Source: an uncultured Syntrophomonadaceae bacterium
GTDB lineage: Bacteria; Bacillota; Dethiobacteria; DTU022
Reading direction: 5' to 3'
NCBI GenBank assembly: GCA_964441025.1
Contig: CAYTXG010000010.1
Coordinates: forward strand, 3,301 to 67,300
Length of the DNA stretch: 64,000 nt
Shown: in pieces, positions 3,189 to 64,000 of the stretch
Position numbering within the stretch: position 1 is the stretch's first letter
How the letters are laid out: each line of letters begins with the position of its first letter
Notes under the pieces: model-generated
The model's database searches: none
Told to the model about the DNA's origin: nothing
Seen by the model: the letters and a program-made list of their open reading frames with translations, nothing else
Made by a program: the position numbers and the translations under genes

Positions 3189-5930
3189 ATGCATCCATTT
3201 ACTGAATATCTCAATCCTTACTTAGGCGATCTCCTGCAAAACATGGCCATGGATAAGAGCTTTGTGCGGGGGGATGGTTGCCATCTTTACGATGAATCCG
3301 GCAACCGCTATCTCGACTGCATAGCCGCTTACGGTGCGCTGCCCTTCGGGCATAACCCCCCGGAGATCTGGGAGGCGGTGACCGGTTTCCGCATCTCCGG
3401 GGAGCCCAATTTTGTGCAGCCCTCTTATCTCGACGCAGCGGGTTTGCTGGCGAAAGGGCTGGTGGAGACGGCTCCGCCTGGCCTGCGCTACGTCACCTTT
3501 ACCAACAGCGGCGCCGAAGCGGTGGAAGCTGCGCTGAAGCTCTGCCGCGCCGCCACCGGGCGTAAAGGGATCCTGGCAGCAGATAACAGCTTCCACGGCA
3601 AGACCCTGGGCGCGCTTTCCGCAACGGGGAACAGCGCCTACCAGGCGCCTTTTGGGACCCCGGTGGAGGGATTCGATTTTGTTAAATACGGGGATCCCGA
3701 TGCTTTGGAAGCCAAATTCGCGGCGGCGCCGCGGTTCTATGCCGCCTTTATCGCCGAGCCTATCCAGGGCGAGGGGGGGATTGTTGTGCCGCCGACGGAC
3801 TACCTTTCCCGGGTTAAAGAGATCTGCGCCCGCTACGGGGTTCTCCTGGTGGTGGATGAGATTCAGACCGGGCTGGGGAGAACTGGCCGTTTATTTGCCT
3901 GTGAAGAGGAAGGAGTTACACCGGACCTGCTGCTCCTGGCCAAAGCCCTGGGCGGCGGCCTTGTGCCCATAGGCGCCTGCCTAAGCACTGCAGAGGCATA
4001 CAGCGATCTCTTTGCGCTGAAGCATTCCTCGACCTTTGCGGGAAATTCACTGGCCTGCCGGGTGGGGCTCCGGGTGCTGGAGCAGCTTACTGCGGATAAC
4101 GGCGCACTGCTGCACCAGGTCCAAAAGCGGGGGCTGCTGTTGAAGGAGGGTCTTTACGCCCTGCAAGAAAAGTACCCGCACCTGATCAGTGCTGTGCGGG
4201 GGAGAGGTTTGATGCTCGGCCTGGAGCTGTCCATGGAGCGGCGCTCATATCCGGGCAGCCTTCTCGGATTTGCCGCCGAACAGGAGCTTCTGGCACCGGC
4301 TCTCTCCGCCTACCTGCTGAACCGGGAGCGGATTCGCGTGGCCCCCACGCTGAACGGCGGCGCCGTTATCCGTATTGAACCGCCGCTCATTATCACTGAC
4401 GCACAGTGCCGCCGAGCTTTGGAAGGCATTTCCGCCGCAATGGCGGTGCTGAACGAAGCAAATACGGCAAGATTCTTCTCATTTTTGGTTACAGATAAGT
4501 CGGAGCTGCGCGGACTCAAAGAACAGTTTTCTCCGGGCCCACCGGCGCCTGGCGGAGCGAAAACAGCAGCCGGCGGGCCTGTTCCGGCAGGTCAGCCGGA
4601 ACAAGCGGCAGCTGCCCCAACTGCCGGCGCCGCCGCCGCTTTCCCCGGTGCGGGTCGCTTTGCCTTCCTGCTTCATCCTCTTGACCTGCAGAGCTATTCG
4701 CAATTTGATAAAAGCCTGCTCCTTTTTAACGAGGATGAACTTGCCCGCCTGGCGAAAAGGTGGAGCAGCCTGATGGAGCCCTATGTGATCTCCCGGGTGG
4801 ATCTGGTATCAAAAGAGGGCGGCTGCGCCCGGGGTGAATTTATCGTTATACCGCGCACAGCCGTAGAGCTGTCCCGGATGCCCCGCGAAAAAGCACTGCA
4901 GGAGCTGCGGAAGGCGATGAATCTGGCCCGGGCGGGCGGCGCTGGTATTGTCGGTCTGGGCGCCTATACCGCCGTTGTCTCCATGGGCGGGCTCTACCTG
5001 AAAGACGAGAAAATCCCGCTGACCACCGGGAACAGCTACACCGTTGTCTCGGCGGCTGAAGCGGTTGGCGCCGCCTGCGGGAAGCTGGGGATACTGCCGC
5101 AGGGCAGCACCGTAGCGGTTATCGGGGGCGCCGGCTCCATCGGCAAGGGGGTGGCCCTGCTGCTTTCCGAAAGCGCGGGCGGGCTTATCCTGGTAGGGAA
5201 TCCTCACAGCAAAAAGAAGGCCTGCGGCGCTCAGCGGATGTGGGGGGTTGCTGCAGAGATCTACCGCTACCTGGCCCGGCTGCTGCAGGGGGGACGCCTT
5301 TTTCCCTGCGGCAGCATGGGTGATCGCCTGTCCCGCTGCGCAGCGCTGCCTTCGCCCGAAGCATCTCTGCAAGATTTCGTTGACTTTGCCCGCAGCGCTG
5401 CGCAACGGGGCGGGCCTATCCGGGTCGCTCTTTCCGCCAAAGAGGGGCTCGGCCGGGCAGGAATCGTGATCAGCGCCACCAGCAGCCGGGAAAAACTGAT
5501 CGGACCGGGCGATCTGCAGCCGGGAGCAGTTGTCTGTGATATCTCAAGGCCGCCCAATGTGAGCGAAGCGGTGGAGAACGAGCGCCCCGATGTCCTGGTT
5601 ATTGACGGCGGCGTTGTCGAGCTGCCCGGGCGCCCCGACCTGGGCTGGGATTTCGGATTCCCGCCGGGTCTGGCCTACGCCTGTATGGCCGAAACAATGA
5701 TGCTGGCCCTGGAGCGCCGCTACGAGCACTTCAGCCTGGGCTCCTCCGGGGTGAACCTGGATTCCATATTGCAGACCCGCCGGTGGGCCGGCCGTCACGG
5801 TTTCAAGCTGGCCGATCTGCGCAGCTTTGATCGCCCCTTGAGCAAAGGGCGCTGGGAGCAGCTGCTTGCCGCCCGCCGCGAACAAAAAACCGCCGTGAGC
5901 CACGGTGACAGTGAGTCAAGGGGACGGTGA
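3189..5930 (+). CDS. Fusion protein: class-III PLP aminotransferase (N-terminal ~440 aa) plus acyl-ACP reductase (AAR)-like NAD(P)-binding domain (C-terminal ~430 aa)
   Basis: ATG 3189 follows GGGGAGG with a 6-nt spacer. The N-terminal part has class-III aminotransferase motifs (NSGAEAVEAALKL, VVDEIQTGLGRTG). A Pro/Ala-rich linker follows. The C-terminal part resembles cyanobacterial aldehyde-forming acyl-ACP reductase (FAFLLHPLDL, GAGIVGLGAYTAVV, VAVIGGAGSIGKGVA, VIDGGVVE). The last codons (ESRGR-stop) are encoded by a REP element. Confidence 0.75.
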   Translation: MHPFTEYLNPYLGDLLQNMAMDKSFVRGDGCHLYDESGNRYLDCIAAYGALPFGHNPPEIWEAVTGFRISGEPNFVQPSYLDAAGLLAKGLVETAPPGLRYVTFTNSGAEAVEAALKLCRAATGRKGILAADNSFHGKTLGALSATGNSAYQAPFGTPVEGFDFVKYGDPDALEAKFAAAPRFYAAFIAEPIQGEGGIVVPPTDYLSRVKEICARYGVLLVVDEIQTGLGRTGRLFACEEEGVTPDLLLLAKALGGGLVPIGACLSTAEAYSDLFALKHSSTFAGNSLACRVGLRVLEQLTADNGALLHQVQKRGLLLKEGLYALQEKYPHLISAVRGRGLMLGLELSMERRSYPGSLLGFAAEQELLAPALSAYLLNRERIRVAPTLNGGAVIRIEPPLIITDAQCRRALEGISAAMAVLNEANTARFFSFLVTDKSELRGLKEQFSPGPPAPGGAKTAAGGPVPAGQPEQAAAAPTAGAAAAFPGAGRFAFLLHPLDLQSYSQFDKSLLLFNEDELARLAKRWSSLMEPYVISRVDLVSKEGGCARGEFIVIPRTAVELSRMPREKALQELRKAMNLARAGGAGIVGLGAYTAVVSMGGLYLKDEKIPLTTGNSYTVVSAAEAVGAACGKLGILPQGSTVAVIGGAGSIGKGVALLLSESAGGLILVGNPHSKKKACGAQRMWGVAAEIYRYLARLLQGGRLFPCGSMGDRLSRCAALPSPEASLQDFVDFARSAAQRGGPIRVALSAKEGLGRAGIVISATSSREKLIGPGDLQPGAVVCDISRPPNVSEAVENERPDVLVIDGGVVELPGRPDLGWDFGFPPGLAYACMAETMMLALERRYEHFSLGSSGVNLDSILQTRRWAGRHGFKLADLRSFDRPLSKGRWEQLLAARREQKTAVSHGDSESRGR

Positions 5931-45281: not shown

Positions 45282-45600
45282 GCCGCCCCTCCTTTACCAG
45301 ATCCCTGGTCAGTGCAGTCATCTGCTCCATACGCCTGCAATCCTCCATCAGGATTTTCCTCCCCTGCGCGGTAGTCCGGTAGACCTTGCGGCGGGGATCA
45401 TCGCTTTCCACCGGTGAGATCAGCTTCCTTCCCGCCAGATTCTCAAAAGCGCCGTACAGCGTGCCCGCCGCAATCCTGACCTGGCCCCTGCTTAGCTCTT
45501 CCACCTTCTGCATCACGGCATAGCCGTGGGAGGGCTCCAGCAGGGCCAGCAAGATGTAGTAGGCGGTCTCCGTCAGCGGCAGCAGCTTGCTCCTCTTCAT
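45274..45600 (-). CDS. PadR family transcriptional regulator
   Basis: Winged helix YYILLALLEPSHGYAVMQKVEELSRGQVRIAAGTLY. Confidence 0.85.
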   Translation of the reverse strand: MKRSKLLPLTETAYYILLALLEPSHGYAVMQKVEELSRGQVRIAAGTLYGAFENLAGRKLISPVESDDPRRKVYRTTAQGRKILMEDCRRMEQMTALTRDLVKEGRHD

Positions 45601-45704
45601 CTGCAGCCTCCTTCCTATAAAGTTAAACTGTATAGTTAGATTATATATAGCAACACTGTATATGTCAACACAAATTTTTTAATCATGTTTTCAGGGGATG
45701 GGGC

Positions 45705-51132: not shown

Positions 51133-52413
51133 ATGACTGAAATGTTCATCGCTGATTTTCACATTCACTCAAAATACTCCCTGGCTACCAGTAAAGATAC
51201 AACTCCCGAAATACTGGATCTCTGGGCCAGGCGCAAGGGGATTGCTGTCGTCGGCACCGGCGATTTTACCCATCCTGCCTGGCGCCAGGAACTGGCTGAC
51301 AAACTACTTACGGCGGCAGAAGGTCTTTACACCCTGAAAGACAGCTGTCGCATTGAAGACCCCATTGCCGGATCTGCTTTACGGCCCCACTTTATCATTT
51401 CGGGTGAGATCAGCACCATCTACAAAAAGGGCGGCAGGGTGCGGAAGGTGCACCACCTGATTCTGCTGCCCGGCCTGGAGCAGGCCGCCTCCATTGCACG
51501 GCGCCTGGAGCGCATCGGCAACTTGCATTCCAACGGCAGGCCCATCCTGGGCCTGGACAGCCGGGAACTGCTGGCCATAGTCCTCGACCTCTGCCCGGAA
51601 GCTGTCTTGATCCCGGCTCACATCTGGACCCCCTATTTCTCGCTGCACGGCGCCTACTCCGGTTTCGACGACATTGAAGAGTGTTTTGGAGATCTGACGG
51701 GCCATATCCATGCGCTGGAGACAGGGCTTTCCTCGGATCCGCCCATGAACTGGCGGCTCTCCGCCCTGGACCGCTTTACCCTTGTCTCCAATTCCGATGC
51801 TCATTCCCCGGCAAAACTGGGTCGGGAGGCGAACATCTTCAGTACGGAGCTCTCCTACGGGCATATCCGACGCGCCCTGGAAAACAAGGAAAGCGGGGGT
51901 TTCCACGGCACCATCGAGTTCTTCCCCGAGCAGGGCAAATACCATTACGACGGGCACAGAAAGTGCAAGGTGTGCTTCAAGCCCTCAGAGACAATAGAGG
52001 CAGGCTGCATCTGCCCCCTTTGCGGCGGCCGCATTACCACCGGGGTCCTGCACCGCGTGGAGGCGCTGGCCGACCGGGACGAGGGCTTTATCCCCGCTGC
52101 GAAAAAACATTTTGAAAGCCTGGTGCCCCTGATTGATGTGATCAAAGCCTCCACCGGCTTTGGCACCGCCTGCAAGAAGGTCATGGACAGATACCATGAG
52201 CTGCTGCGTGAACTAGGCCCGGAGCTCTTCATCCTGCGACGGGCTCCGCTGAAGGAGATCGAGCGCATCGCCGGCGCACGCACCGCCGTCGGCATCAGCC
52301 GGCTGAGGAGCGGACAGCTGAAGATAGAGCCGGGTTATGACGGGGCCTACGGCAAGATCAATCTTGTGGATAAGGATGAGGGCAAAACCCGCCCGGGCAG
52401 GACGCACCGCTGA
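51133..52413 (+). CDS. PHP-domain protein with internal zinc finger, endonuclease Q-like (TIGR00375-type)
   Basis: N-terminal PHP motif DFHIHSKYS and a central C-x-C...C-x2-C zinc ribbon (CICPLCGG). Its ~420-aa size matches EndoQ. Confidence 0.5.
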   Translation: MTEMFIADFHIHSKYSLATSKDTTPEILDLWARRKGIAVVGTGDFTHPAWRQELADKLLTAAEGLYTLKDSCRIEDPIAGSALRPHFIISGEISTIYKKGGRVRKVHHLILLPGLEQAASIARRLERIGNLHSNGRPILGLDSRELLAIVLDLCPEAVLIPAHIWTPYFSLHGAYSGFDDIEECFGDLTGHIHALETGLSSDPPMNWRLSALDRFTLVSNSDAHSPAKLGREANIFSTELSYGHIRRALENKESGGFHGTIEFFPEQGKYHYDGHRKCKVCFKPSETIEAGCICPLCGGRITTGVLHRVEALADRDEGFIPAAKKHFESLVPLIDVIKASTGFGTACKKVMDRYHELLRELGPELFILRRAPLKEIERIAGARTAVGISRLRSGQLKIEPGYDGAYGKINLVDKDEGKTRPGRTHR

Positions 52414-52944: not shown

Positions 52945-54684
52945 ATGAGCAGGGTGGTAAGAGTGTACATGTCCGAGAAGAAAGTGGTTGTCGGGCCTCT
53001 GCCCGATAAATATGCCGGCAAGGGCGGGCGCTGGTTGACCTCGCTGATGGTCAGCGATGAGGTTCCTGCGGGCTGCCATCCCCTGGGGCCCAACAACAAG
53101 CTCATATTCGCCCCCGGTATCCTCAGCGGCACCAGTGCGCCCAACACCGGACGGATCTCGGTGGGGGGCAAGTCGCCGCTTACCGGGGGAATCAAGGAAT
53201 CCAACGCCGGCACCCCCTTCCCCCAGCAGCTGGCCCGCATGGGCTACGCAGCCCTGGTTGTGGAAGGGACCGCCGGCGACGACGGCCGTTGGCTGCTGAA
53301 GCTGGGCACAGACGGCGGCGAGCTGGTCCCCGCGGATGAGCTGAAATGGAAGGGAACCTACGAAGCAGCAGCCGCCCTAAAGGAAAGTTACGGGGCTAAA
53401 ACCGACTTCATGCTCATCGGCCCCGCCGGCGAGGCGAAGATGGCCATGGCCGGCATCGCCTTCAATGATAAAGAGGGGCGCCCCACCCGTTATGCCGGAC
53501 GCGGCGGGCTGGGTGCGGTTCTGGGCAGCAAGGGGCTGAAAGGCATCGTCCTCGACGGCGCCGGCGCACCCGGGATTAAGCCGGTAGATGAAGGCCTCTT
53601 CAAGGAGGGCCGGGAAAAGCTGGCCGATGCCATTCAGTCCCACGATGTGACCAAAAAGGGCGGCGCCCTGAACAGTTTCGGCACCGCGGTGCTGGTCAAC
53701 ATCCTCAACGAAGCCGGCGGCCTGCCCACCAGGAACTTCAGTTCCGGTGTCTTTGAAGGAGCTCAGGAGATCAGCGGCGAAGCCCTGGCCGAGGCGGCAA
53801 AGGAGCGGGGCGGCGCCGGAATGATGGGGCATACCTGCCATCCCGGCTGCCTCATCGGCTGCTCCAATGTCTACGCCCGGGAAGACGGCAGCGAGCATGT
53901 CTCCTGTATCGAATATGAGTCCAGCTGGGCTCTGGGGGCCAACTGCGGCATAGACAACCTTGACCACGTGGCCGAGCTGGTCCGGATGTGCAATGACTTC
54001 GGCATCGATACCATCGAGGCGGGTGTTACGCTGGGCGTGGCCATGGAGGCAGGGCTGGCGGAGTTCGGCGACGGTCCGGCGGCGATCAAGTTGCTCGGTG
54101 AGATCGGAGCCCGCACCCCCCTGGGCCATGTCCTGGGGCAGGGCGGCCATTTCACCGGAAAAGCCTACGGCGTGGTCCGGATCCCCACCGTTAAAGCCCA
54201 GGGGATGCCCGCTTATGACCCCCGGGCGGTTAAAGGCATCGGGGTAACTTACATGACCACGCCCATGGGGGCGGACCATACCGCCGGCTATACCATCGCC
54301 CCCGAGATTCTGGCGGTGGGCGGGCAGCAGGAGCCCCTTTCTACCAAAGACAAGGTGGCGCTTTCCAGGGCCTTCCAGGAAACCACCGCCTTTATCGATG
54401 CCACCGGCTACTGCCTTTTCATCGCCTTTCCCATTCTCGACATCCCCAGCGGTTTCGAAGGGGTTCTCCAGACCGTAAATGCCATGCTGGGGACCGGCTA
54501 CACCGGGGATGATGTGGGCGCCATCGGCAGGGAGATCCTGCAGATAGAGAAGGATTTCAACACCCGCGCCGGTATTACCGCGGCGGCGGATCGCCCGCCG
54601 GAATTCATGCGCTATGAAAAACTCCCGCCGCATAACCATGTCTTTGATATCACCGATGAGGAGCTGGACAGTTTCTGGAACTGA
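52945..54684 (+). CDS. aor: Aldehyde:ferredoxin oxidoreductase (tungsten/molybdopterin AOR family)
   Basis: N-terminal AOR domain (GGRWLTS...GPNNKLIFAPGILSGT) and a C-terminal domain with the Fe-S Cys ligands. RBS AGGAGG. Confidence 0.85.
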   Translation: MSRVVRVYMSEKKVVVGPLPDKYAGKGGRWLTSLMVSDEVPAGCHPLGPNNKLIFAPGILSGTSAPNTGRISVGGKSPLTGGIKESNAGTPFPQQLARMGYAALVVEGTAGDDGRWLLKLGTDGGELVPADELKWKGTYEAAAALKESYGAKTDFMLIGPAGEAKMAMAGIAFNDKEGRPTRYAGRGGLGAVLGSKGLKGIVLDGAGAPGIKPVDEGLFKEGREKLADAIQSHDVTKKGGALNSFGTAVLVNILNEAGGLPTRNFSSGVFEGAQEISGEALAEAAKERGGAGMMGHTCHPGCLIGCSNVYAREDGSEHVSCIEYESSWALGANCGIDNLDHVAELVRMCNDFGIDTIEAGVTLGVAMEAGLAEFGDGPAAIKLLGEIGARTPLGHVLGQGGHFTGKAYGVVRIPTVKAQGMPAYDPRAVKGIGVTYMTTPMGADHTAGYTIAPEILAVGGQQEPLSTKDKVALSRAFQETTAFIDATGYCLFIAFPILDIPSGFEGVLQTVNAMLGTGYTGDDVGAIGREILQIEKDFNTRAGITAAADRPPEFMRYEKLPPHNHVFDITDEELDSFWN

Positions 54685-55775: not shown

Positions 55776-57887
55776 TTGTCCGGACTATTACTTTCCGACG
55801 AATTCAAGGCCACCCTCGATGATTGCCCGCAGGAACTGAGAAGCCGGGTCATGGATGCCATCCAGAGGCTGAGAGTGGATCCGGGACACCCCGGGCTCAA
55901 GGCCCACCGCATCAAGAACACCCCGGGCAAGTGGGAATGCTATGTGAACCAGGGCTGGCGGATTATCTATGACCGGGAGGGAGACATGCTACGCCTCTGG
56001 AGACTGGGCGATCACCGCATCATCGACCGGGCCCACCTCAGCGTTTTCTCACCGCAAACCGCTTTCAGCAGGCTGGAAGCGGGGTATACAGACGAAGCAG
56101 AAGCTGAGACCGCTGCCGCCGCAAGCAATAGCGGTGCATTACTTGTTCCACCGGCGCCTGAAGAAGAGGCGGACAACCCCTTTGTTCTCTTTTCCGCCAC
56201 CCACCTGCGCTTCCTGGGGGTACCCACTCACCTGGTAAAAAAGGTACAGCGAACCCGTCGTCTCGAAGATCTGGAGCGGATCGAGGGCCTGCCCCCGCAG
56301 AGCCTTGCCTGGATGCTGGACCTGGCCACCGATTGCGGGATGGAGCACGTTCTCTACAACCCCGACAGCCTTCTCTTTCGCACCACACTGGACCGGCTTC
56401 GGGGCTACTGCCGCGGCAGCCTGAAAAAGCTGATGCTCAACCTCGATCCGGAGCAAGCCCGCTATGTTGAATCCCGCCATGCCGGCGCCATGGTCCTGCG
56501 CGGCTGCGCCGGCTCGGGCAAGACCACCGTGGGCATTTACCGCGCCATCGAGCGGGCCGCCAAAGGCCGCCGGGTTCTTTTACTTACCTTTACCCGGACT
56601 CTGACCAGTGTCAACAAGACCCTCATTGAAGAGCTTATCGGCCCGCTGCCGGACAACCTGCAGGTAGACAGGATTATGAACTGGCTTGTCGAGTACCTGA
56701 AACAAGAACAGGGGTTTCAGGCAGACATAGTGGACGGCGCCCCGCAAAGTGAACTCTTGGAAAACGCGCTCCATCGGGCCAGGGAGATTTCAGGAAAAGA
56801 TTTTCCCGACCTTGTCCTGGATTTTTTAAATACCGAAATCCAGCAAGTGATCAAGGGAAATGGCATCGATACCCTGGAGCAATACCTGCAGGTGCGCCGT
56901 TTCGGGCGTAACACGCCCTTGACGCCGCGATACCGCAGGGCGGTCTGGTCTGTCTACACCTGTTACCAGGAGATGCTCGAAGAGGAGGGTCTCTGCGACT
57001 GGAGCGACATCCCCCTGCTGGGGCTGAAAAAACTCACCGAAACCCCCCTTGACGATCCCTACGATGATGTCATCCTCGACGAAGGCCAGGATCTAAGCCC
57101 CGTCCAGCTGCGCCTGACCAGGGCGCTGATCAAAGGCGCCGATCCCCGCTCCCGCCGCAGCTACATGGTCATGGCCGATGCCTCCCAGACCATCTACAGC
57201 CGCGGCTTCTCCTGGAAAGAGGCGGGCATTGAAGCGGTGGGCCGCACCTCCATATTACGCAAAAACTTTCGCAATACCAGGCAGGTAGCAGCAGCAGCCG
57301 CCCGCCTTCTCGAACATAATACGTTCCTAGAAAAGGAGCGCGAATTTATAGAGCCCATCTGGTCCCACCGCATCGGGGCCCGCCCCCGGGTGGTGACCTG
57401 TGATCTGACGGAGCGAGAGCTGCGCTTTGTCTGCGAAGAGGTGCTGGACCTTGTCGGTGGCGGCCATTTCCGACTCTCCGACTTCGCCGTGCTCTGCCCC
57501 ACCAACAAACTGTGTGAGCAGTACCGGGACGAGTTGAACAGACGTGGCATTCCCTGCGTTTTTCACAAGGACAGGACTTTCAACATCCTGGAGGAGACGG
57601 TCAAGGTAATGACCATCCATTCCTCCAAGGGGATCGAATTTCCCGTGGTCTTCGTGGCCGGTGTGCGCAGCGGACTGCTTCCCCGGCGTATTAACCGTTC
57701 CGGCCTTGACAAAGAAGAGGCACAGCTGGACCGTGAGCGCTTCCGCACCCTGCTCTACGTGGCCATGACCCGCGCCGCGGAGAACCTCTTCCTGATCACT
57801 ACCACCGGTAAAGAGTCGCCTTTCATCAAAGAGATTGCCGGCTTCGTTGACCGCGAAGAGTACTGCGGACCGGAATATACTGGATAA
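55776..57887 (+). CDS. RelE/ParE-fold domain fused to UvrD-like superfamily-1 helicase
   Basis: TTG start after GGAGGG. Residues 1-90 carry a RelE/ParE-like signature (PGKWECYVNQGWRIIYDREGDMLRLWRLGDHRII). Helicase motifs I (GCAGSGKTT), II (ILDEGQDLS), V/VI (TIHSSKGIEFPVVFV, YVAMTRAAENLFL) follow. Confidence 0.75.
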   Translation: MSGLLLSDEFKATLDDCPQELRSRVMDAIQRLRVDPGHPGLKAHRIKNTPGKWECYVNQGWRIIYDREGDMLRLWRLGDHRIIDRAHLSVFSPQTAFSRLEAGYTDEAEAETAAAASNSGALLVPPAPEEEADNPFVLFSATHLRFLGVPTHLVKKVQRTRRLEDLERIEGLPPQSLAWMLDLATDCGMEHVLYNPDSLLFRTTLDRLRGYCRGSLKKLMLNLDPEQARYVESRHAGAMVLRGCAGSGKTTVGIYRAIERAAKGRRVLLLTFTRTLTSVNKTLIEELIGPLPDNLQVDRIMNWLVEYLKQEQGFQADIVDGAPQSELLENALHRAREISGKDFPDLVLDFLNTEIQQVIKGNGIDTLEQYLQVRRFGRNTPLTPRYRRAVWSVYTCYQEMLEEEGLCDWSDIPLLGLKKLTETPLDDPYDDVILDEGQDLSPVQLRLTRALIKGADPRSRRSYMVMADASQTIYSRGFSWKEAGIEAVGRTSILRKNFRNTRQVAAAAARLLEHNTFLEKEREFIEPIWSHRIGARPRVVTCDLTERELRFVCEEVLDLVGGGHFRLSDFAVLCPTNKLCEQYRDELNRRGIPCVFHKDRTFNILEETVKVMTIHSSKGIEFPVVFVAGVRSGLLPRRINRSGLDKEEAQLDRERFRTLLYVAMTRAAENLFLITTTGKESPFIKEIAGFVDREEYCGPEYTG
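57738..57872 (+). repeat. Left copy of 135-bp direct repeat (3' end of helicase gene)
   Basis: Identical to 62140-62274 apart from 3 mismatches. Confidence 0.9.
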
Positions 57888-58096
57888 CGGAAGGCAGATT
57901 TAACCCTAATTGCTCAGAACTTCTAGGGTATCTGTCCCCGCCAGCCCACTTTCTTCTGATCCCATTTTCACACAGTCAACTTCTAAAGGGTTTTCTTTTG
58001 GCGTCAACGCCATCGAGCAGGACCCTAGGGAATAGTATATAATTGCAGGTTTAAAACACTTACTGATCCTATCTAATCCTAATTCCAGTTGTAGTT

Positions 58097-61000
58097 TTAA
58101 GATCTTGGGAATAAGGGTCTAAATGATTTCATTCTTTTTCCTGTCTTATAAAGGATAGGTAGGGAATTATTAGGACAATTCTCTTCAAAGACAACTAGTG
58201 CTTGTGTATCACCAAACCCTAGGGGTGCACGTGGCTCAAGTCTTTCTCCAAAAGATTGCGCAATTTCTTTTGCTGTATTACGCTCTACTTTAGATGACCA
58301 GATAATTGATGTATCCGAAAATGCTTTATCTGAATCCTTTAATTCATCAGCGCAGACAACGCGAGCGGAAGAAGAAAAACCTTGTTCCATTTCTTTTTCA
58401 ACCTTCATTAAGCCAACTTCCGTTCCGACAACAGCTACATACCACAGTTTTATTCCTTGATCATTAATTGCGCTAGGCAAGTCAGGGTATTTTGTTCTCA
58501 ATTTTCTTAAGAGTCCAGTGGCAGTTTTACCTGTACCAATAAAATCGTCAACAAATACCAGTGCAGCAATTTGTTTATCTTTAATAATGCGCTCGTAAAT
58601 TCCGTCTGGATTAATGCAATTATTGCGATAAATGTTATTTTCTTGTCTGTAAAGACGTGCCATAGTTGGGCCACTACTACCAGGTAGACCTAAATAGCTA
58701 ATTAAAATATCTCGGCGGCTTCTTTGCCCCTCTTCTATTTTGGTTACTATGCTTCTTTTTACTGATCTATGAGCCTGAAGGAACCTCTCTTTTACGATGT
58801 CATGCGAATAAAATTTTAAGTGCTGTAGCAACTTCAGCACTAATCTTTGATCTGTCGGATTTCCAAATTGCTTAATCCAGTCTCGCACTTCAGACTCTGT
58901 TCGCTTGCGAGATTGGTAAGGGCCCCATCTCTCAACCAACTCTCTTATTTCTGTACCTGTTATTGATTTTGATCGTTCATTGTCTAATTTCTCAGCTAAC
59001 TGGAGTTCCGAAGCGACCATGGCAGTTAGGTCCAAGTATCCCCGCTCTTTTAGCCATTCCTGAAATAGCCTGACCCGAAACCAATATTGTTCGTTATTGG
59101 AGATTATAATTCTTCGATCCTGAAAACCTCGCAATTGTCGTTCTGTATCTTGTGTCGTACATCGATAATGTAAAGCTCTTTCGATCAGCTGATCCTTTAT
59201 AATATAGCCCTCATTTAGCCGAAGGATATCAGCTGCAGCAAGAAGAAATCGGACACGCTCCGATCGTTTGGTAATGAATTCACTATCATCTAAATAAATT
59301 AGTCCATCGTCCCAATAATGGGCAAAACTATTCGCTTCAACCTCATTCAACGTACGACGTATACCTTCATGCACTTCCTCCTTTGTAATATGCGCATCAC
59401 GTCGTTCAATCATCAACTGAGCTAGCCGATTTGCAATTTCTTTAAGGAAATAGGGGTTACCAGCTGAATACTCCCATAACAACTCTATTGCCCTATCCGA
59501 AAATTCAAGCGGTGCACCCGGCCGGCGGACTAGTTCCAGAAAGGCATCCCATTCTTTATCCCGATCAAAGTAATCTATCCGTTCCGGGCGGTACATGTTT
59601 AAGCGCATGCCTTGGTCCCTAATTATAACCGGAATGCGTTCACCACCTACGAGTAGCACCCCCGATATTTTGTTTTCCCGCTAAACCCTTACCAAGGGTT
59701 TGGAAAAATGCGTCGGCTGTCCCACGGGCTTTATACAGTTCTACTGGCAGTTCATCGAACTCGTCAAGAATTATTATAAATTTATGCATTGGCTCAATTA
59801 TTGTTGCTTGTTCAAGGAACTCACTTAAAGGTGCTAGCGTTCCCATTGGATCCCGAATAGGTATACTAGCCAGTGCGGGTGTAATTCTCATTTGTTCGAT
59901 AAGGCGCAGGCACATCCTATTAATGGTATCTTCTGCAGTAACATCTCGAATTGTTTCTAAATATGCTACGCAGATTTGCTTATTATCTACGAGCCTTGCT
60001 GTAAGGGCTTTCGCAACAGAAGTTTTCCCAACGCGCTTTTGCCCCCATAAATATATAGAGCCAGGATTTGATCTAGAAAAAGTCGAGCTTAACCGTTTTA
60101 ATAACCGATCCCTGCCAACAAAGTCTTCCCCTATCGCTACCTCTAACGCGTAAGGCTGTTTTGACTCAAGTGCTTCCCAATCAATATTAGGATCCTGGCT
60201 TAGGATTTCAAGTTCAGTGGTAGAAGAATCAACGCTGTTATCGAAATTAGTCCACGAAGCAGTAACATGTAGAAAGGCTGATTCCCTTGATGCTATTACA
60301 GTAGCATTAGCATAGACTACACGGCTTTCATTTGCTTGCAAGTTACCCACAGGCAGATTTGTTATACAATGGATTGCTTGTTTTATTCCTTCAACAGTGA
60401 GGTGACAATTAAACGCTTTTCCTGTTCCATTATTCGACACCCGTATTCTTATAACCAGATCGGTTCCTACTAAATGAAGGGGGTACTTTTTAGGTTCCAA
60501 GTTCATTACAAGTCGAGCTGGATCGGTCAACCTTAGGTCCTTCATCTGGGCGCCAACCGCATCTTTAGCGGATCGAATTAGTTGTCCTAGGTGTTTAGCA
60601 TATTTTGTTGGAATTCTCAGCAGTACTTCAAGACAAGAATCGCACGCTTCAATCGAAGTATAGTACTCATCTAGAGCTTGAACTCCCTTGGCTTCGCTAA
60701 ATGCCTCGATTGCAGAGAAAGCGTTCTTTATGGCGTTGTTGACTGCTTGGCGTTCCATAAACGTAAACAGAAGACCAGCATTTGTTCTGGAATTTAAGCT
60801 GTTGAGAACCTGTCTAGTAAAATCTTTAAACACCGCAAGGCCGCAGAATTGGGTGGTTTCAAAAAATATCTTTTCAATTTGCGGCACTATACTACTTAGC
60901 TTTGATTCAACATCATGTGATTGTCTAGAAAAGTCTATTGAGTATACTTTTTTTAGCTCGTTGCCAAGTTCACGTTCGATAAAAGCAATGAATTTTGGGC

Positions 61001-61322
61001 GGAGATGTGCTGGTTTGGCCGGAAAAGAGCCATGGGATCCTAAATATCTTAGAAGTACCCATGATACAAGGCGCCTGTCACCCGGACTTATTTTATCCGA
61101 AACAAGCCCTGCGACCCCCTCTTCTCTATAAATATCCGAACCGTGAGGTAATACACGCAAAATATCTTTAGCAAATTTTGTAAATAATGATGTTTTACGA
61201 CTATCACTTGTTACTGATTGTTCTACTACCTGATCGGTTAGGTAACGTACATCGTCGTCTGATGATCCAGCAATGGACGGGCTTAAGGAACCTGCCCTAG
61301 CCTGTCCTTGAAAGTGGGTCAT
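58097..61322 (-). pseudogene. Frameshifted gene for a ~1075-aa protein: N-terminal unknown domain + Arch_ATPase/STAND-like P-loop NTPase + C-terminal phosphoribosyltransferase (PRTase)-like domain
   Basis: Two ORFs (59640-61322 and 58097-59659) overlap by 20 nt at a C5/G5 homopolymer. Walker A (GQKRVGKTSVAKAL) and Walker B (FIIILDEFDEL) are in the upstream ORF. The rest of the same ATPase fold (EYSAGNPYFLKEI) is in the downstream ORF. The C-terminus carries a PRPP-loop-like motif (ALVFVDDFIGTGKTATG). The whole region is low GC. Confidence 0.6.
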
Positions 61323-62139
61323 TGCTTGTCACTCTCCCCTTAGCTCCATAAACAAGCTTTGTTTTTGTATAAAGGTGTAGAGAGTAATTATGCTATGGTT
61401 GCTGTTCTTTGAACGGTGTGTGTTCTAGGGCGACAGTAATACCATTAGACAAATTAGGAATGAATTCCTTCTATTTCTCGGTAGTTCCGTGAAAATTTAC
61501 GCATCTTGCCTGCCAAGGATGTGATCATGAGTAGTTTCGATAATTACTGCGGCTATTTGTGCAGTGCTATCAGAACCAGCTTAGCCTGAAGTGGAAAAGG
61601 GTGCAGGTCCGGTTGGAGGTGTCGGGTGAGGGCGTCTCCGGTTTTTTGTTTAAGGGCTTAGGCTTGGGTTAGTCATGGGGTAATAGTCTGGGGAGTTGCG
61701 GATTCCTTCCGGCTGATGACATAGAATTAGGGGAACACATAGGGAATAAAGGAAGGGAGTCCCCATTCTCCTAAACAAAGAAATAGAACAATATAATCAG
61801 AATAAATCTTGCCTGGCCCTTATCAATATGTCAAATGCACAGAATTAATAAATAAGTAACAACCCAAGGAGTTGATATACCTACAGACCGCTGCCTAATA
61901 CCTTGGTGTAACAGGCTTTTTCTTGAAGATGCTAACACCGCTCCCATGGCATAAAAGATAATGTAACCGCCGCTTTTGTTGCGTACCTTTTTTGGGCTAA
62001 AATAAACCTAAAGCTGTCGCATGGGGGGACGCCCCCAGGTGGTGGCTGCAATCTGCTGGGTCGGCGTGTGCTACGGACTGTTCCTTTGTGCAATGTTCGT
62101 ACAGGCCTAGAAAAAGAAGAGGCCTGGCTGGACTCTGAA

Positions 62140-62274
62140 CGCTTCCGCACCCTGCTCTACGTGGCCATGACCCGCGCCGCGGAGAACCTCTTCCTGATCA
62201 CTACCACCGGTAAAGAGTCGCCTTTCATCGGAGAGATTGCCGGCTTCGTTGACCGCGAAGAGTATTGCGGACCG
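62140..62274 (+). repeat. Right copy of 135-bp direct repeat (duplicate helicase 3' end, still an in-frame ORF tail)
   Basis: 132/135 identity to 57738-57872. It encodes ...ERFRTLLYVAMTRAAENLFLITTTGKESPFIGEIAGFVDREEYCGP. Confidence 0.9.
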
Positions 62275-62550
62275 TTAAATGTGGTGTAAGGGATGTTTGT
62301 TTATAATTGGGCTTTTCAAAATTATTCTTTGTGAAAGCGACACACTTGTGTCACCGTGGTTTGTTATAATTATACAGGTTACACTTGGAATCGCCCTGTT
62401 GCCGGGCAAACAAAACAGGGGACGAAGGGACAGGGGCAAGTGAGCAGGCTATCAGAGGTATATTCCCCAGCCATTGAATATAGTTATCGGAAGGTTTGTT
62501 CATAATGACAGGAGAACAGGATGTCTGTCCTATGTACGAAGGGGTGCAAG

Positions 62551-63132
62551 ATGAAAATCATCACCTTGCCGCATAGACATACCAATGCCTTTTTAGTCAA
62601 GGGTGATTCCTGGCTGATGGTGGATGCCGGGTATCCTGAATCGTACCCTGCTTTCAAAACACATATGAAACAGCAAGGTGTTGATTGGTCCGATATATTT
62701 GCTCTGATGGTGACCCATTTTCATCCCGATCACGCCGGGTTGGTCCAGATCATTCGCGAGCATAATATCCCCCTGCTATTACATGAATCACAGGAAGGCT
62801 ACATTGACTGGATCAACAGCTTTTTTGAAAAGCATATCCACAAAAAATATGTTCCCACTAAACAGGAAGGTATCCGTTATATGAATTCTGGGGAAAGCAG
62901 GAGCTGCCTTAATGAACATGGATTAAAAGGTGAGATAGTCCCCACGCCCGGCCATTCCGAGGACAACGTGAGCTTGGTTATTGACGGCGACTGCGCTTTC
63001 GTTGGGGATTTGCAAAATTATCATATATTAAAAGAAGCGGCGCTGCCCATTGAAAGCAGAAGTTGGGACAATATCCTTTCCTTTGGCATAAAAATAGTCT
63101 ATCCCACACACGGCAACCCCTATCATGTTTAG
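62551..63132 (+). CDS. MBL-fold metallo-hydrolase (metallo-beta-lactamase superfamily)
   Basis: HFHPDHAG motif. ATG 62551 follows AAGGGGTG. Lower GC than the core genome. Confidence 0.7.
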   Translation: MKIITLPHRHTNAFLVKGDSWLMVDAGYPESYPAFKTHMKQQGVDWSDIFALMVTHFHPDHAGLVQIIREHNIPLLLHESQEGYIDWINSFFEKHIHKKYVPTKQEGIRYMNSGESRSCLNEHGLKGEIVPTPGHSEDNVSLVIDGDCAFVGDLQNYHILKEAALPIESRSWDNILSFGIKIVYPTHGNPYHV

Positions 63133-63502
63133 GAAGTTTGCTGCTACCAAAACCGGAAAAGGAATTTCCCGCGAACGAGCGGCATCCGCAGAACCAATAA
63201 GAGCATGGCGCCCTATCCAGCCGGGTTCGAATAGCTTCCCAAAATAGTTCCATTCTGGGGAGCCCGGCTGCATTCATGGATCAAGCCGATGAACATAGCT
63301 GAGTAATCTGAAAATTACAAGGGAATCACTGTCTCACTGTCGAAAGGTATTATCTACTTCCGCAAAAGAGGGTGTCTCATTGGCCAGATTTTACGGGATA
63401 GACGGTGATTTTGATGCAAGGGCGAACACCTTCGCCAACGCGTTGAAGGACCATCTGGATGAACGGTAAACCCTAAAAAGGTGGGTAAGGGGGAATCTTT
63501 TT

Positions 63503-64000
63503 ATGGAAAAGATAATTGACCTGATCCATTCCGGTTATCTATCTGATTGGAATCGGCGCAGTCAAGATGCCTTTGATGAACTATTTGGTTCTGCTGCAGG
63601 AAGATATCCAGAAAGGGCCAGGCAATCAATAACTCTGAGGGCACCTGAGTTCCGATCTGGCTCAGGTGGCGTCCCCTTTGCGGCATTGATTGATCCTTCT
63701 AATCCTGATTCGGGCGCATTTGGCGGCATGAGTTTTGTCATTTTCCCCATGGAAAGCCGACCGGCTTTACTAGGCATGGTTATCGGCACCCAGGGGCTTA
63801 GCCCTGATGAAGAGGTTCTTGCGCGTCCAGGCCATGGCCGCAAGGTGGTCGCCATCTGCAACTGGCTCAACAAACAACATGGCCAGGGGAAAATGGTGGC
63901 CTGGGCCAAGCAGGATCCAGCCCGCATTGATCTAGATATGCCTGGGAATATCAAGACCCTTTTTGCCGATTATCAGCCCATTTTTAATCGGTACGGCAGA
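63503..64000 (+). CDS. Hypothetical protein, 3'-truncated by window end
   Basis: The open frame runs from ATG 63503 to the window end (at least 166 aa) and is preceded by AAGGTGGGTAAGGGGGAA. No confident family assignment; moderate GC. Confidence 0.45.
   Translation, partial: MEKIIDLIHSGYLSDWNRRSQDAFDELFGSAAGRYPERARQSITLRAPEFRSGSGGVPFAALIDPSNPDSGAFGGMSFVIFPMESRPALLGMVIGTQGLSPDEEVLARPGHGRKVVAICNWLNKQHGQGKMVAWAKQDPARIDLDMPGNIKTLFADYQPIFNRYGR

Follow-up and report, generated by a model that had tools for sequence, protein, structure and literature searches.

The stretch of DNA analysed here, a window of 64,000 nt from an uncultured Syntrophomonadaceae bacterium (positions 3,301 to 67,300 of contig CAYTXG010000010.1, assembly GCA_964441025.1), raises the question of whether two adjoining genes belong to one antiphage system: a gene encoding a UvrD-type helicase with a toxin-like N-terminal domain and, directly behind it, a gene encoding an ATPase with a C-terminal phosphoribosyltransferase (PRTase) domain, hereafter the ATPase-PRTase. 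An earlier note on this DNA had proposed that the two act together in abortive infection, the helicase serving as partner. The present analysis gives a different answer. The two genes are neighbours because the spot behind the helicase collects defence genes, not because their products cooperate, and the ATPase-PRTase is very probably a standalone cargo of this hotspot. Regarding the locus as a whole, the favoured reading, considered reasonably probable, is that of a defence-island hotspot with a cargo acquired by a single crossover, the cargo being a predicted NTPase-switch/PRTase-effector gene that is now inactivated.

Insertion of foreign DNA at the 3' end of the helicase gene

Regarding base composition, the GC content is 0.589 in the helicase gene, 0.421 in the insert (57892-62097) and 0.561 in the entire window, and the profile falls from approximately 0.58-0.61 across the helicase to 0.38-0.46 at 57.9-62.0 kb. 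The open reading frame (ORF) map places the insert exactly at the 3' end of the helicase gene and shows a single gene on its minus strand, so that both the compositional shift and this placement, as claimed in the earlier note, are borne out; the insert is foreign DNA. Besides the two ORFs into which the cargo gene is split, no ORF of at least 80 aa was detected in the insert. A recombinase or integrase ORF was not present in 57892-62097, no transposase was found in the 4.4 kb, and there was no gene for a reverse transcriptase (RT) in the insert and no transfer RNA (tRNA) gene in the window. Across 55-64 kb no Rfam match was obtained at E<=1, and promoter and terminator scans remained at chance level. 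In the 205-nt stretch from the left repeat to the cargo stop codon, the motif CCCTA...TAGGG / CCCTAGGG occurs twice (57906-57932 and 58024-58036).

On both sides of the insert lies a copy of the helicase 3' end; the two copies form a direct repeat (196 nt, 89% identical, spacing 4402 nt), within which 90 nt are perfectly conserved, and a fainter similarity to the helicase continues to the left of the right repeat as far as approximately 62030. The locus as delimited in the earlier note (55776-62274) ends within the second, truncated copy of the helicase tail. Both copies were compared with L010, a contig of a Syntrophomonadaceae metagenome-assembled genome (MAG) encoding a helicase of 96% identity. 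In the part that precedes the core, the left copy matches L010 at every position and the right copy has diverged; directly after the core the right copy has 'GG' as in L010 and the left copy has 'AA'. This match pattern is expected from the single crossover of a circle within the core. In the proposed mechanism, a circle carrying a foreign helicase 3' fragment and the low-GC cargo, together a 4.4-kb unit, would have recombined into the last 200 nt of the helicase gene by a single Campbell-type crossover, presumably inside the 90-nt identical core, which would leave the helicase gene hybrid yet intact, followed by the cargo and by a truncated, dead copy of the helicase tail.

Comparison with helicase relatives shows, from the differing low-GC cargo that they carry, that the helicase 3' flank is a variable hotspot holding mostly defence genes. 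L010 shares 96% identity with the window up to 57863 and is unrelated beyond that point, and it has genes encoding an HNH_2 endonuclease and unknown proteins directly downstream of the helicase. Downstream genes in L009 and L017 encode HD_4, DUF6978, DUF1828, JetD_C and HNH_2 proteins, those in L018 and L021 a PLD-ResIII helicase, a HIT protein and the BREX proteins brxA-brxB-brxC-pglX, and in L022 approximately 8.7 kb of other genes are followed by a gene 77% identical at the nucleotide level to window 63486-63816. The GC content of this downstream cargo is always below that of the helicase. Since the partial ORF starting at approximately 63470 thus recurs 8.7 kb downstream of the L022 helicase, it probably marks where the variable region ends on the right.

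Two further observations concern the extent of this region. In L021 (2851-14693) and in L018 the BREX cluster appears complete, with BrxA, BrxB, a 1222-aa BrxC-like protein and a PglX-like methylase right after the helicase, and it is preceded by the PLD-ResIII-helicase protein, the HIT protein and a DUF3427 fragment. On the other side, window 45474-45670 corresponds to L021:108-304, which lies approximately 300 nt upstream of the helicase in L021 and 10 kb upstream in the window; this shift indicates approximately 10 kb of extra DNA to the left of the window helicase, encoding an SbcC-like AAA_27 protein (1168 aa), a metallophosphatase, ORFs of 426 aa (51133-52413) and 579 aa (52945-54684) and a ThiS-like protein, and the helicase may lie inside a larger variable region.

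An alternative that is considered unlikely describes the 4.4-kb unit as a site-specific, integrase-less mobilisable cassette with its attachment (att) site at the helicase 3' end and a recombinase acting in trans. Its geometry would be that of a classic attL/attR pair with an element-borne surrogate gene end, homology breaks inside the last ~15 helicase codons in two independent comparisons of close relatives, and several different cargos are found at the same place. Against this, no recombinase was detected in or beside the insert, neither the exact element nor its ends were found a second time (the closest protein shares 70% identity and has unrelated flanks), a duplicated helicase tail was not present in any of the helicase relatives fetched, and RecA could readily act on ~180 nt of homology that include a 90-nt identical core. 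These absences, together with those of a tRNA gene and a transposase, favour a homologous single crossover over a site-specific element. The abrupt loss of similarity between the window and L010 in the last ~15 codons keeps alive, at low probability, the idea that the helicase 3' end is a landing pad for defence cassettes that each bring their own helicase tail. Searches for related sequences gave no match to the exact 90-nt core in viral contigs, and no terminal overlap, flank repeats or flank similarity to the window in the short contigs L001-L006. A 4402-nt Logan contig encoding a 1074-aa family member was considered as a circular form of the element and rejected, as its protein is only 33% identical to P0001 and the size match is due to chance.

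Like genomic islands that target the 3' end of a tRNA, transfer-messenger RNA (tmRNA) or protein gene, the locus has direct repeats of the target-gene 3' end, an intact target and cargo that differs among relatives. It differs from such islands in that the insert has no integrase and in the considerable length of its repeats (196 nt, of which 90 nt form the perfect core), which fits the single crossover of a circle; as a candidate site-specific integrative element it was rejected, the repeats being present but an element-encoded recombinase not.

Domain architecture of the ATPase-PRTase

The two minus-strand ORFs of the insert are one gene disrupted by a single extra G. If one G is removed from the GGGGG run (59659-59663), the gene encodes a protein of 1074 aa that aligns colinearly with intact homologues (1050-1080 aa), and the alignment across the repair site is unbroken ('...GKQNIGVLLVGGERIP...' here, '...GKQNVGVLLVGGERIP...' in the homologue). 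The frameshifted but conceptually repairable gene described in the earlier note was thus recovered, as were the motifs GQKRVGKTS, DEFDE and GNPYFL and the phosphoribosyl pyrophosphate (PRPP) loop LVFVDDFIGTGKTA, all of which are found in the sequence. Most homologues are intact, so the gene is not degraded everywhere, although the present copy is broken.

An AlphaFold (AF2) model of the repaired protein, built on 19 homologues (predicted local distance difference test, pLDDT, 88.6), yields the domain layout given in Table 1, with a long helix at residues 751-785 and the PRTase-CE domain at residues 789-1074, in whose core strands and helices alternate at residues 872-1058. The Pfam family PRTase-CE (PF24390) matches at 1.1e-50 (173.3 bits against a cut-off of 27), positions 1-253 of its 253 being covered by the C-terminal 262 residues, and the 18 homologues that have the domain all carry a precomputed PF24390 match; at the PRPP loop, adenine PRTases were also matched weakly by profile. 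Within a conservation set of 43 members sharing 25-45% identity, D925 is invariant, and conservation reaches at least 90% at D924 and G930; G931, P1050, N1051 and P1055 are likewise invariant in the family alignments. The domain has the PRPP loop and the modelled Rossmann-like core of a type I phosphoribosyltransferase, and catalysis is predicted. A C-terminal PRTase domain with a textbook PRPP loop, as the earlier note had it, is confirmed by the PF24390 match, and the loop is intact.

PADLOC includes models for ShosT and PsyrT, which the earlier note had named as the best-known PRTase-domain proteins of phage-defence islands. Five PADLOC PRTase_III-A models, which describe effectors of type III-A retrons and not proteins of CRISPR systems, were matched (best 8.5e-39, weakest 2.4e-15), while no PADLOC models other than the retron PRTase ones matched the PRTase at E<=0.1, which places it by profile similarity in the retron type III-A effector clade and not with PsyrT or ShosT. 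The motif of the retron clade, Gx14PNNxP (PMC12746101), was found as GFGDTQALVVFEENCPNNSLP, with the spacing PNNxxP here instead of PNNxP.

Regarding the NTPase module, AAA_16 and ATPase_2 match the upstream ORF, and scores for ORC/Cdc6, Arch_ATPase (PF01637), TnsC and BrxC lie above those for Apaf-1, NLRs and Avs. Of the core of the Arch_ATPase/STAND (signal transduction ATPases with numerous domains) type that had been suggested, the P-loop NTPase stands, but by these scores it is nearer to ORC/Cdc6/Arch_ATPase than to STAND proteins. Little or no variation was seen across the 43 members in the Walker A (GQ..G.TS) and Walker B (DEFD) motifs, a GGE motif, the PRPP-loop aspartates and the CPNN.LP and F..R motifs at the C-terminus, and the conservation of both motif sets at this level of identity indicates that the ATPase and PRTase modules are both under selection.

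Table 1. Coordinates of the features of the locus in the 64,000-nt window (residue numbers refer to the repaired ATPase-PRTase or to the helicase).
Feature	Position	Strand	Remarks
Helicase gene	55776-57887	+	From the ORF map; 703 aa; resident and intact; last codons now supplied by the left repeat copy
RelE/YafQ-superfamily N-terminal domain of the helicase (residues 1-95)	55776-56060	+	Family profile, homologue matches and AF2 topology
Left repeat copy	57696-57891	+	Serves as the tail of the functional helicase gene; identical to L010 in the part before the core
Perfect core of the repeat, 90 nt	57738-57827 = 62140-62229	+	Presumed crossover region
Inserted low-GC DNA	57892-62097		One long gene, flanked by 205 nt on one side and 775 nt of non-coding DNA on the other
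ATPase-PRTase gene	58097-61322	-	Split into two ORFs by a +1 frameshift
Downstream cargo ORF	58097-59659	-	520 aa; overlaps the upstream ORF; PF24390 PRTase-CE 1.1e-50
PRTase-CE domain (residues 812-1073)	58103-58888	-	PF24390, PADLOC PRTase_III-A; C-terminal CPNNSLP and PLFPR motifs
PRPP loop LVFVDDFIGTGKTA	58520-58561	-	
ORC/Cdc6/Arch_ATPase-type AAA+ module with lid and winged helix (residues 382-750)	59072-60179	-	Walker B DEFDE
Upstream cargo ORF	59640-61322	-	560 aa; AAA_16 7e-8, ATPase_2 4e-6
GGGGG run with extra base	59659-59663	- (gene strand)	GGGG at the same codon in the closest intact homologue
Walker A GQKRVGKTS	60018-60044	-	
Ig-like/CARDB-like beta-sandwich (residues 271-375)	60198-60512	-	
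All-helical N-terminal domain (residues 21-262)	60537-61262	-	AF2 model and alignment; poorly conserved; candidate sensor region
Right repeat copy	62098-62293	+	Truncated, dead helicase 3' fragment with its own stop; residual ORF 62068-62289
Flank beyond the right repeat (original downstream flank)	62294-64000	+	GC 0.472
Small gene for a metallo-beta-lactamase (MBL)-fold hydrolase	62521-63132	+	Lactamase_B 2e-16; right of the repeat; surrounding GC 0.47
Partial ORF	~63470 to window end (64000)	+	No Pfam match; runs off the window

A large and unnamed family

When 1.84 billion cluster representatives were searched exhaustively with a profile, matches numbered 19027 at E<=1e-3, 9101 at E<=1e-10 and 1991 at E<=1e-30, the last set being ~2000 representatives of clusters at 50% identity. 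The best 150 of these 1991 matches (E<=1e-249), for which near-full-length status is known, are nearly all of 1040-1080 aa and span profile positions 5-1059. The ATPase-PRTase is thus a large, unnamed family of proteins of ~1060 aa; the view that the family is rare, based on 20 proteins in a word-indexed search, was overturned by the exhaustive search. None of the family members checked carried a source name, no full-length model of the architecture is present in PADLOC 2.0 or NCBIfam, and no paper describing an ATPase-PRTase fusion was found. The statement that this is not a described system therefore stands as far as papers and full-length models are concerned, but the family is large and not a one-off. 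Nothing was detected for the PRTase half in PHROGs, and collections of plasmids and phage genomes contained solo PRTase-CE domains only, labelled 'hypothetical protein'.

Gene neighbourhoods and putative function

Eleven loci of ATPase-PRTase homologues were examined (L001, L007, L008, L014-16, L025-27, L031 and L032). A tblastn search with the window helicase detected it in none of them, the sole signal being a weak P-loop match to GajB of the Gabija pair beside P0003, and no neighbour of any kind is conserved among the 11 loci. The co-occurrence of ATPase-PRTase and RelE-helicase genes that the earlier note expected from a neighbourhood survey was thus not encountered, and neither this comparison nor the helicase relatives, which carry other cargo, support the functional pairing that it had proposed. 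Several of the loci nevertheless resemble defence or mobile-element surroundings: the neighbourhoods include an adjoining Gabija system (L007), a KAP NTPase and a NADAR gene with two IS110 copies (L014), a DUF4238 gene and an insertion sequence (IS) (L016), an N6 methylase gene and an IS (L008), the end of a phage tail/lysis module of a prophage (L025), and genes for a C5 methylase and an AAA_15/21 ATPase (L026).

Two of these loci have features of their own. The NADAR-domain gene of L014 (11345-11749, minus strand; 134 aa) is convergent with and directly downstream of homologue P0007, with the two IS110 copies flanking; NADAR plus PRTase is the make-up of the validated DS-32 system, and a NADAR protein might at times serve this PRTase clade as antidote or partner. 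In L001 (4014-4516, minus strand) the 70%-identical homologue is convergent with the 3' end of another helicase-type gene, which by eye resembles the DUF1998/MrfA zinc domain.

Regarding function, the N-terminal helical and Ig-like domains may be the sensor of an infection cue, upon which the AAA+ (ORC-like) module would release the C-terminal PRTase by NTP-dependent switching or oligomerisation; the PRTase would then use up PRPP or otherwise upset nucleotide pools, so that infection is aborted. The ATPase would take the controlling role that the complex of RT and multicopy single-stranded DNA (msDNA) has over the homologous retron effector, and the present copy would be silenced by the one extra G. 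The Retron-Eco11 effector is activated by phage helicases and its activation lowers PRPP by about half (PMC12746101), and ShosT, a more distant PRTase, disrupts purine metabolism (PMC11961720). The nucleotide-directed abortive-infection role put forward in the earlier note is plausible. By analogy, the model of sensor, transducer and PRTase effector is held to be an even chance. Slightly short of that, and accordingly put forward as tentative, is the broader proposal that the family is a single-protein antiphage system in which an ORC/Cdc6-type switch with a helical/Ig-like sensor replaces RT-msDNA as controller of the PRTase and kills or arrests the infected cell by depletion of PRPP or nucleotides.

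Alternatively, the family could be a regulated enzyme of nucleotide metabolism or signalling without a role in defence, since some members lie amid housekeeping genes, no PADLOC or NCBIfam defence model matches at full length, and the defence role is a prediction only. This is regarded as improbable: the PRTase domain groups with retron effector models, the distribution of the family is patchy, and the gene is of low GC and horizontally acquired here. Moreover, Gabija, DUF4238, KAP NTPase, IS elements and prophage ends are among its neighbours, and it is readily pseudogenised, traits that are typical of conflict genes.

Frameshift and assembly

It is somewhat less probable that assembly artefacts account for the arrangement, the frameshift or both, arising from a free circle or a second strain that shares the 90-nt core with an empty site, and from a homopolymer miscall. 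The source looks like a MAG contig, the nearest genome matches being MAGs of Syntrophomonadaceae/Bacillota, a chromosome path with a 4402-nt cycle through the core would give the same graph as the integrated state, and other family members are also found split in assemblies of long-read style. Against an artefact, the outer parts of the repeat copies differ as those of true attL/attR hybrids should, and 10 other genes of the window were checked and have full-length domain matches; this complete coverage indicates that the assembly is not generally prone to frameshifts. The extra G is taken as a real inactivation, an assembly error being less likely.

Regarding the split copies, in the protein cluster of P0149, family members split in two were observed with P0290 and P0294 on one 20-kb contig and P0291 and P0292 on one 57-kb contig; the parts measure 564+496 aa and 278+786 aa and may reflect recurrent pseudogenisation or long-read assembly errors.

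The RelE/YafQ-like-UvrD helicase

The resident gene encodes a fusion of a RelE/YafQ-like domain and an SF1A (UvrD/Rep-type) helicase, with Pfam matches to UvrD_C (6.5e-26) and UvrD-helicase (3.3e-15). With the single sequence, the N-terminal domain gives matches to YafQ_toxin (1.5e-3), RelE_StbE (4.9e-4) and ParE_like (1e-2), all under the Pfam and NCBIfam cut-offs, but 18 of 29 helicase homologues match YafQ_toxin (PF15738). A profile of residues 1-98, built from 17 sequences and compared with the PDB, aligns over the whole domain (positions 2-81) with the YafQ-family toxin HP0894 (4ls4, 1z8m and 4ltt; E 5e-4 to 9e-4) and thereafter with YafQ and YoeB, and the AF2 model of the domain has a beta-alpha-alpha-beta-beta-beta topology. 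The RelE/ParE-fold-UvrD fusion recognised in the earlier note is thus weak at the level of the single sequence, yet a RelE/ParE (YafQ-type) toxin fold holds at the level of the family on profile and model, and RNase activity is predicted only. Residues H44, W53, Y56, R62 and H80 are invariant in the N-terminal domain of the helicase family; H44, R62 and H80 are plausible RNase residues, and a Tyr stands where YafQ has its catalytic His.

Among the candidates scored, 993 matches to the helicase family were obtained, nearly all of ~700 aa, from Bacillota, Anaerolineae, Thermomicrobiales and others, with the JGI name 'SF1 helicase/YafQ'. No description of a RelE-UvrD fusion was found in the literature; the fusion is widespread and uncharacterised and is repeatedly located at the edges of defence islands. 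The chromosome stretch of the helicase also has genes of aromatic amino-acid biosynthesis. A helicase remnant in L020 (907-1169, minus strand) joins codons 4-24 straight to codons 635-700, an internal deletion in which the start has been retained along with the 3' end, the part of the gene from which the window's repeat is made.

The SF1A core of the helicase is recognised by GajB models (3.5e-27) and by the 'NERD+UvrD' C3a187 model (9e-40), in which the helicase resembles GajB of Gabija; it differs in having no GajA/OLD-TOPRIM neighbour and no NERD domain, but a RelE/YafQ-like N-terminal domain instead. Membership of Gabija was rejected, the neighbours being a ThiS-like gene and the insert, without GajA.

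A joint toxin/helicase defence system of the PsyrTA or ShosTA kind, made up of the helicase together with the ATPase-PRTase, is largely refuted and retains hardly any probability: the genes are adjoining and convergent, approximately 200 nt apart, PRTase toxins with helicase or DprA partners exist (PMC9122126; PMC11961720), phage helicases trigger the retron PRTase effector, and the L001 homologue abuts the 3' end of the helicase-type gene that by eye is DUF1998-like, but the helicase is native in composition while the ATPase-PRTase is foreign, their junction is a recombination scar, the helicase occurs in 0 of the 11 homologue loci, helicase relatives carry other cargo at the same position, and the two families differ greatly in spread.

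Comparison with known systems

Type III-A retrons have PRTase-like effectors, for example Retron-Eco11 (Mestre 2020, PMC7736814). The cargo shares with them a homologous effector domain (PRTase_III-A 8.5e-39; PF24390), a canonical PRPP loop and the clade motif of PNNxP type, here CPNNSLP, but has no RT, msr/msd RNA or separate winged-helix partner, and its PRTase forms the C-terminal end of a fusion with an 800-aa AAA+ protein that presumably controls it. A complete retron type III-A system was rejected on ORFs, Rfam and folding, which gave no adjacent RT or msr/msd RNA; when the 330-nt 5' flank of the gene was folded on both strands, z was ~0, without excess structure and hence without sign of a retron-like RNA.

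The likeness to Avs/AVAST, bNACHT and other STAND proteins lies in a single large polypeptide with a P-loop switch and winged helix, a variable putative sensor and an enzymatic effector, encoded by a standalone gene in defence islands and at prophage ends. The cargo differs in its NTPase, which gives higher scores with ORC/Cdc6, Arch_ATPase, TnsC and BrxC than with Apaf-1, NLRs or Avs, and in the order of its domains, the putative sensor being N-terminal (helical and Ig-like) in place of C-terminal tetratricopeptide repeat (TPR)-like repeats. The Avs layout of N-terminal effector and C-terminal repeat sensor was rejected, the effector of the cargo being C-terminal.

With ShosT, PsyrT and DS-32A the cargo has in common a PRTase-fold effector of a kind used against phages; it differs in that only retron PRTase models match and in that no DprA, RecQ or NADAR partner is present here. 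Membership of ShosTA/PsyrTA was rejected, with no family-model match, no DprA or RecQ gene in the insert and a UvrD-type neighbour unrelated in origin. The same applies to DS-32 (NADAR + PRTase), as the NCBIfam model DS-32A (DS32_1, NF053875) scores 29.9 bits against a cut-off of 250 and no NADAR gene is found here.

Significance of the locus and the family

Several points weigh against the reading of the locus as a hotspot with a single-crossover, defensive cargo. The crossover model is drawn from one locus, and the assignment of the arms after the core depends on 2-3 nucleotides; no other copy of the exact element was found, so that mobility is not demonstrated, and the contig is probably from a MAG in which a 177-nt near-identical repeat could be mis-resolved. 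Regarding function, the sensor role of the N-terminal part and the PRPP-depletion chemistry are argued by analogy, and the defence role of the family is a prediction. Three of the homologue loci (L015, L031 and L032) lie amid ordinary housekeeping genes, and PHROGs, phage genomes and plasmids contain no full-length member.

Under the favoured reading of the hotspot with its crossover-derived cargo, the locus is a clean natural example of a defence gene dropped into a hotspot, in which a conserved gene survives recombination within its tail undamaged, and a newly acquired, probably toxic gene would then have been quickly silenced. The present locus is inactive and its context incidental, but the family is a good experimental target. 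If defensive, it would be a widespread new combination in which a retron PRTase effector is placed under an ORC-like ATPase switch, and it would offer a simpler, RNA-free handle on the chemistry of a poorly understood PRTase effector.

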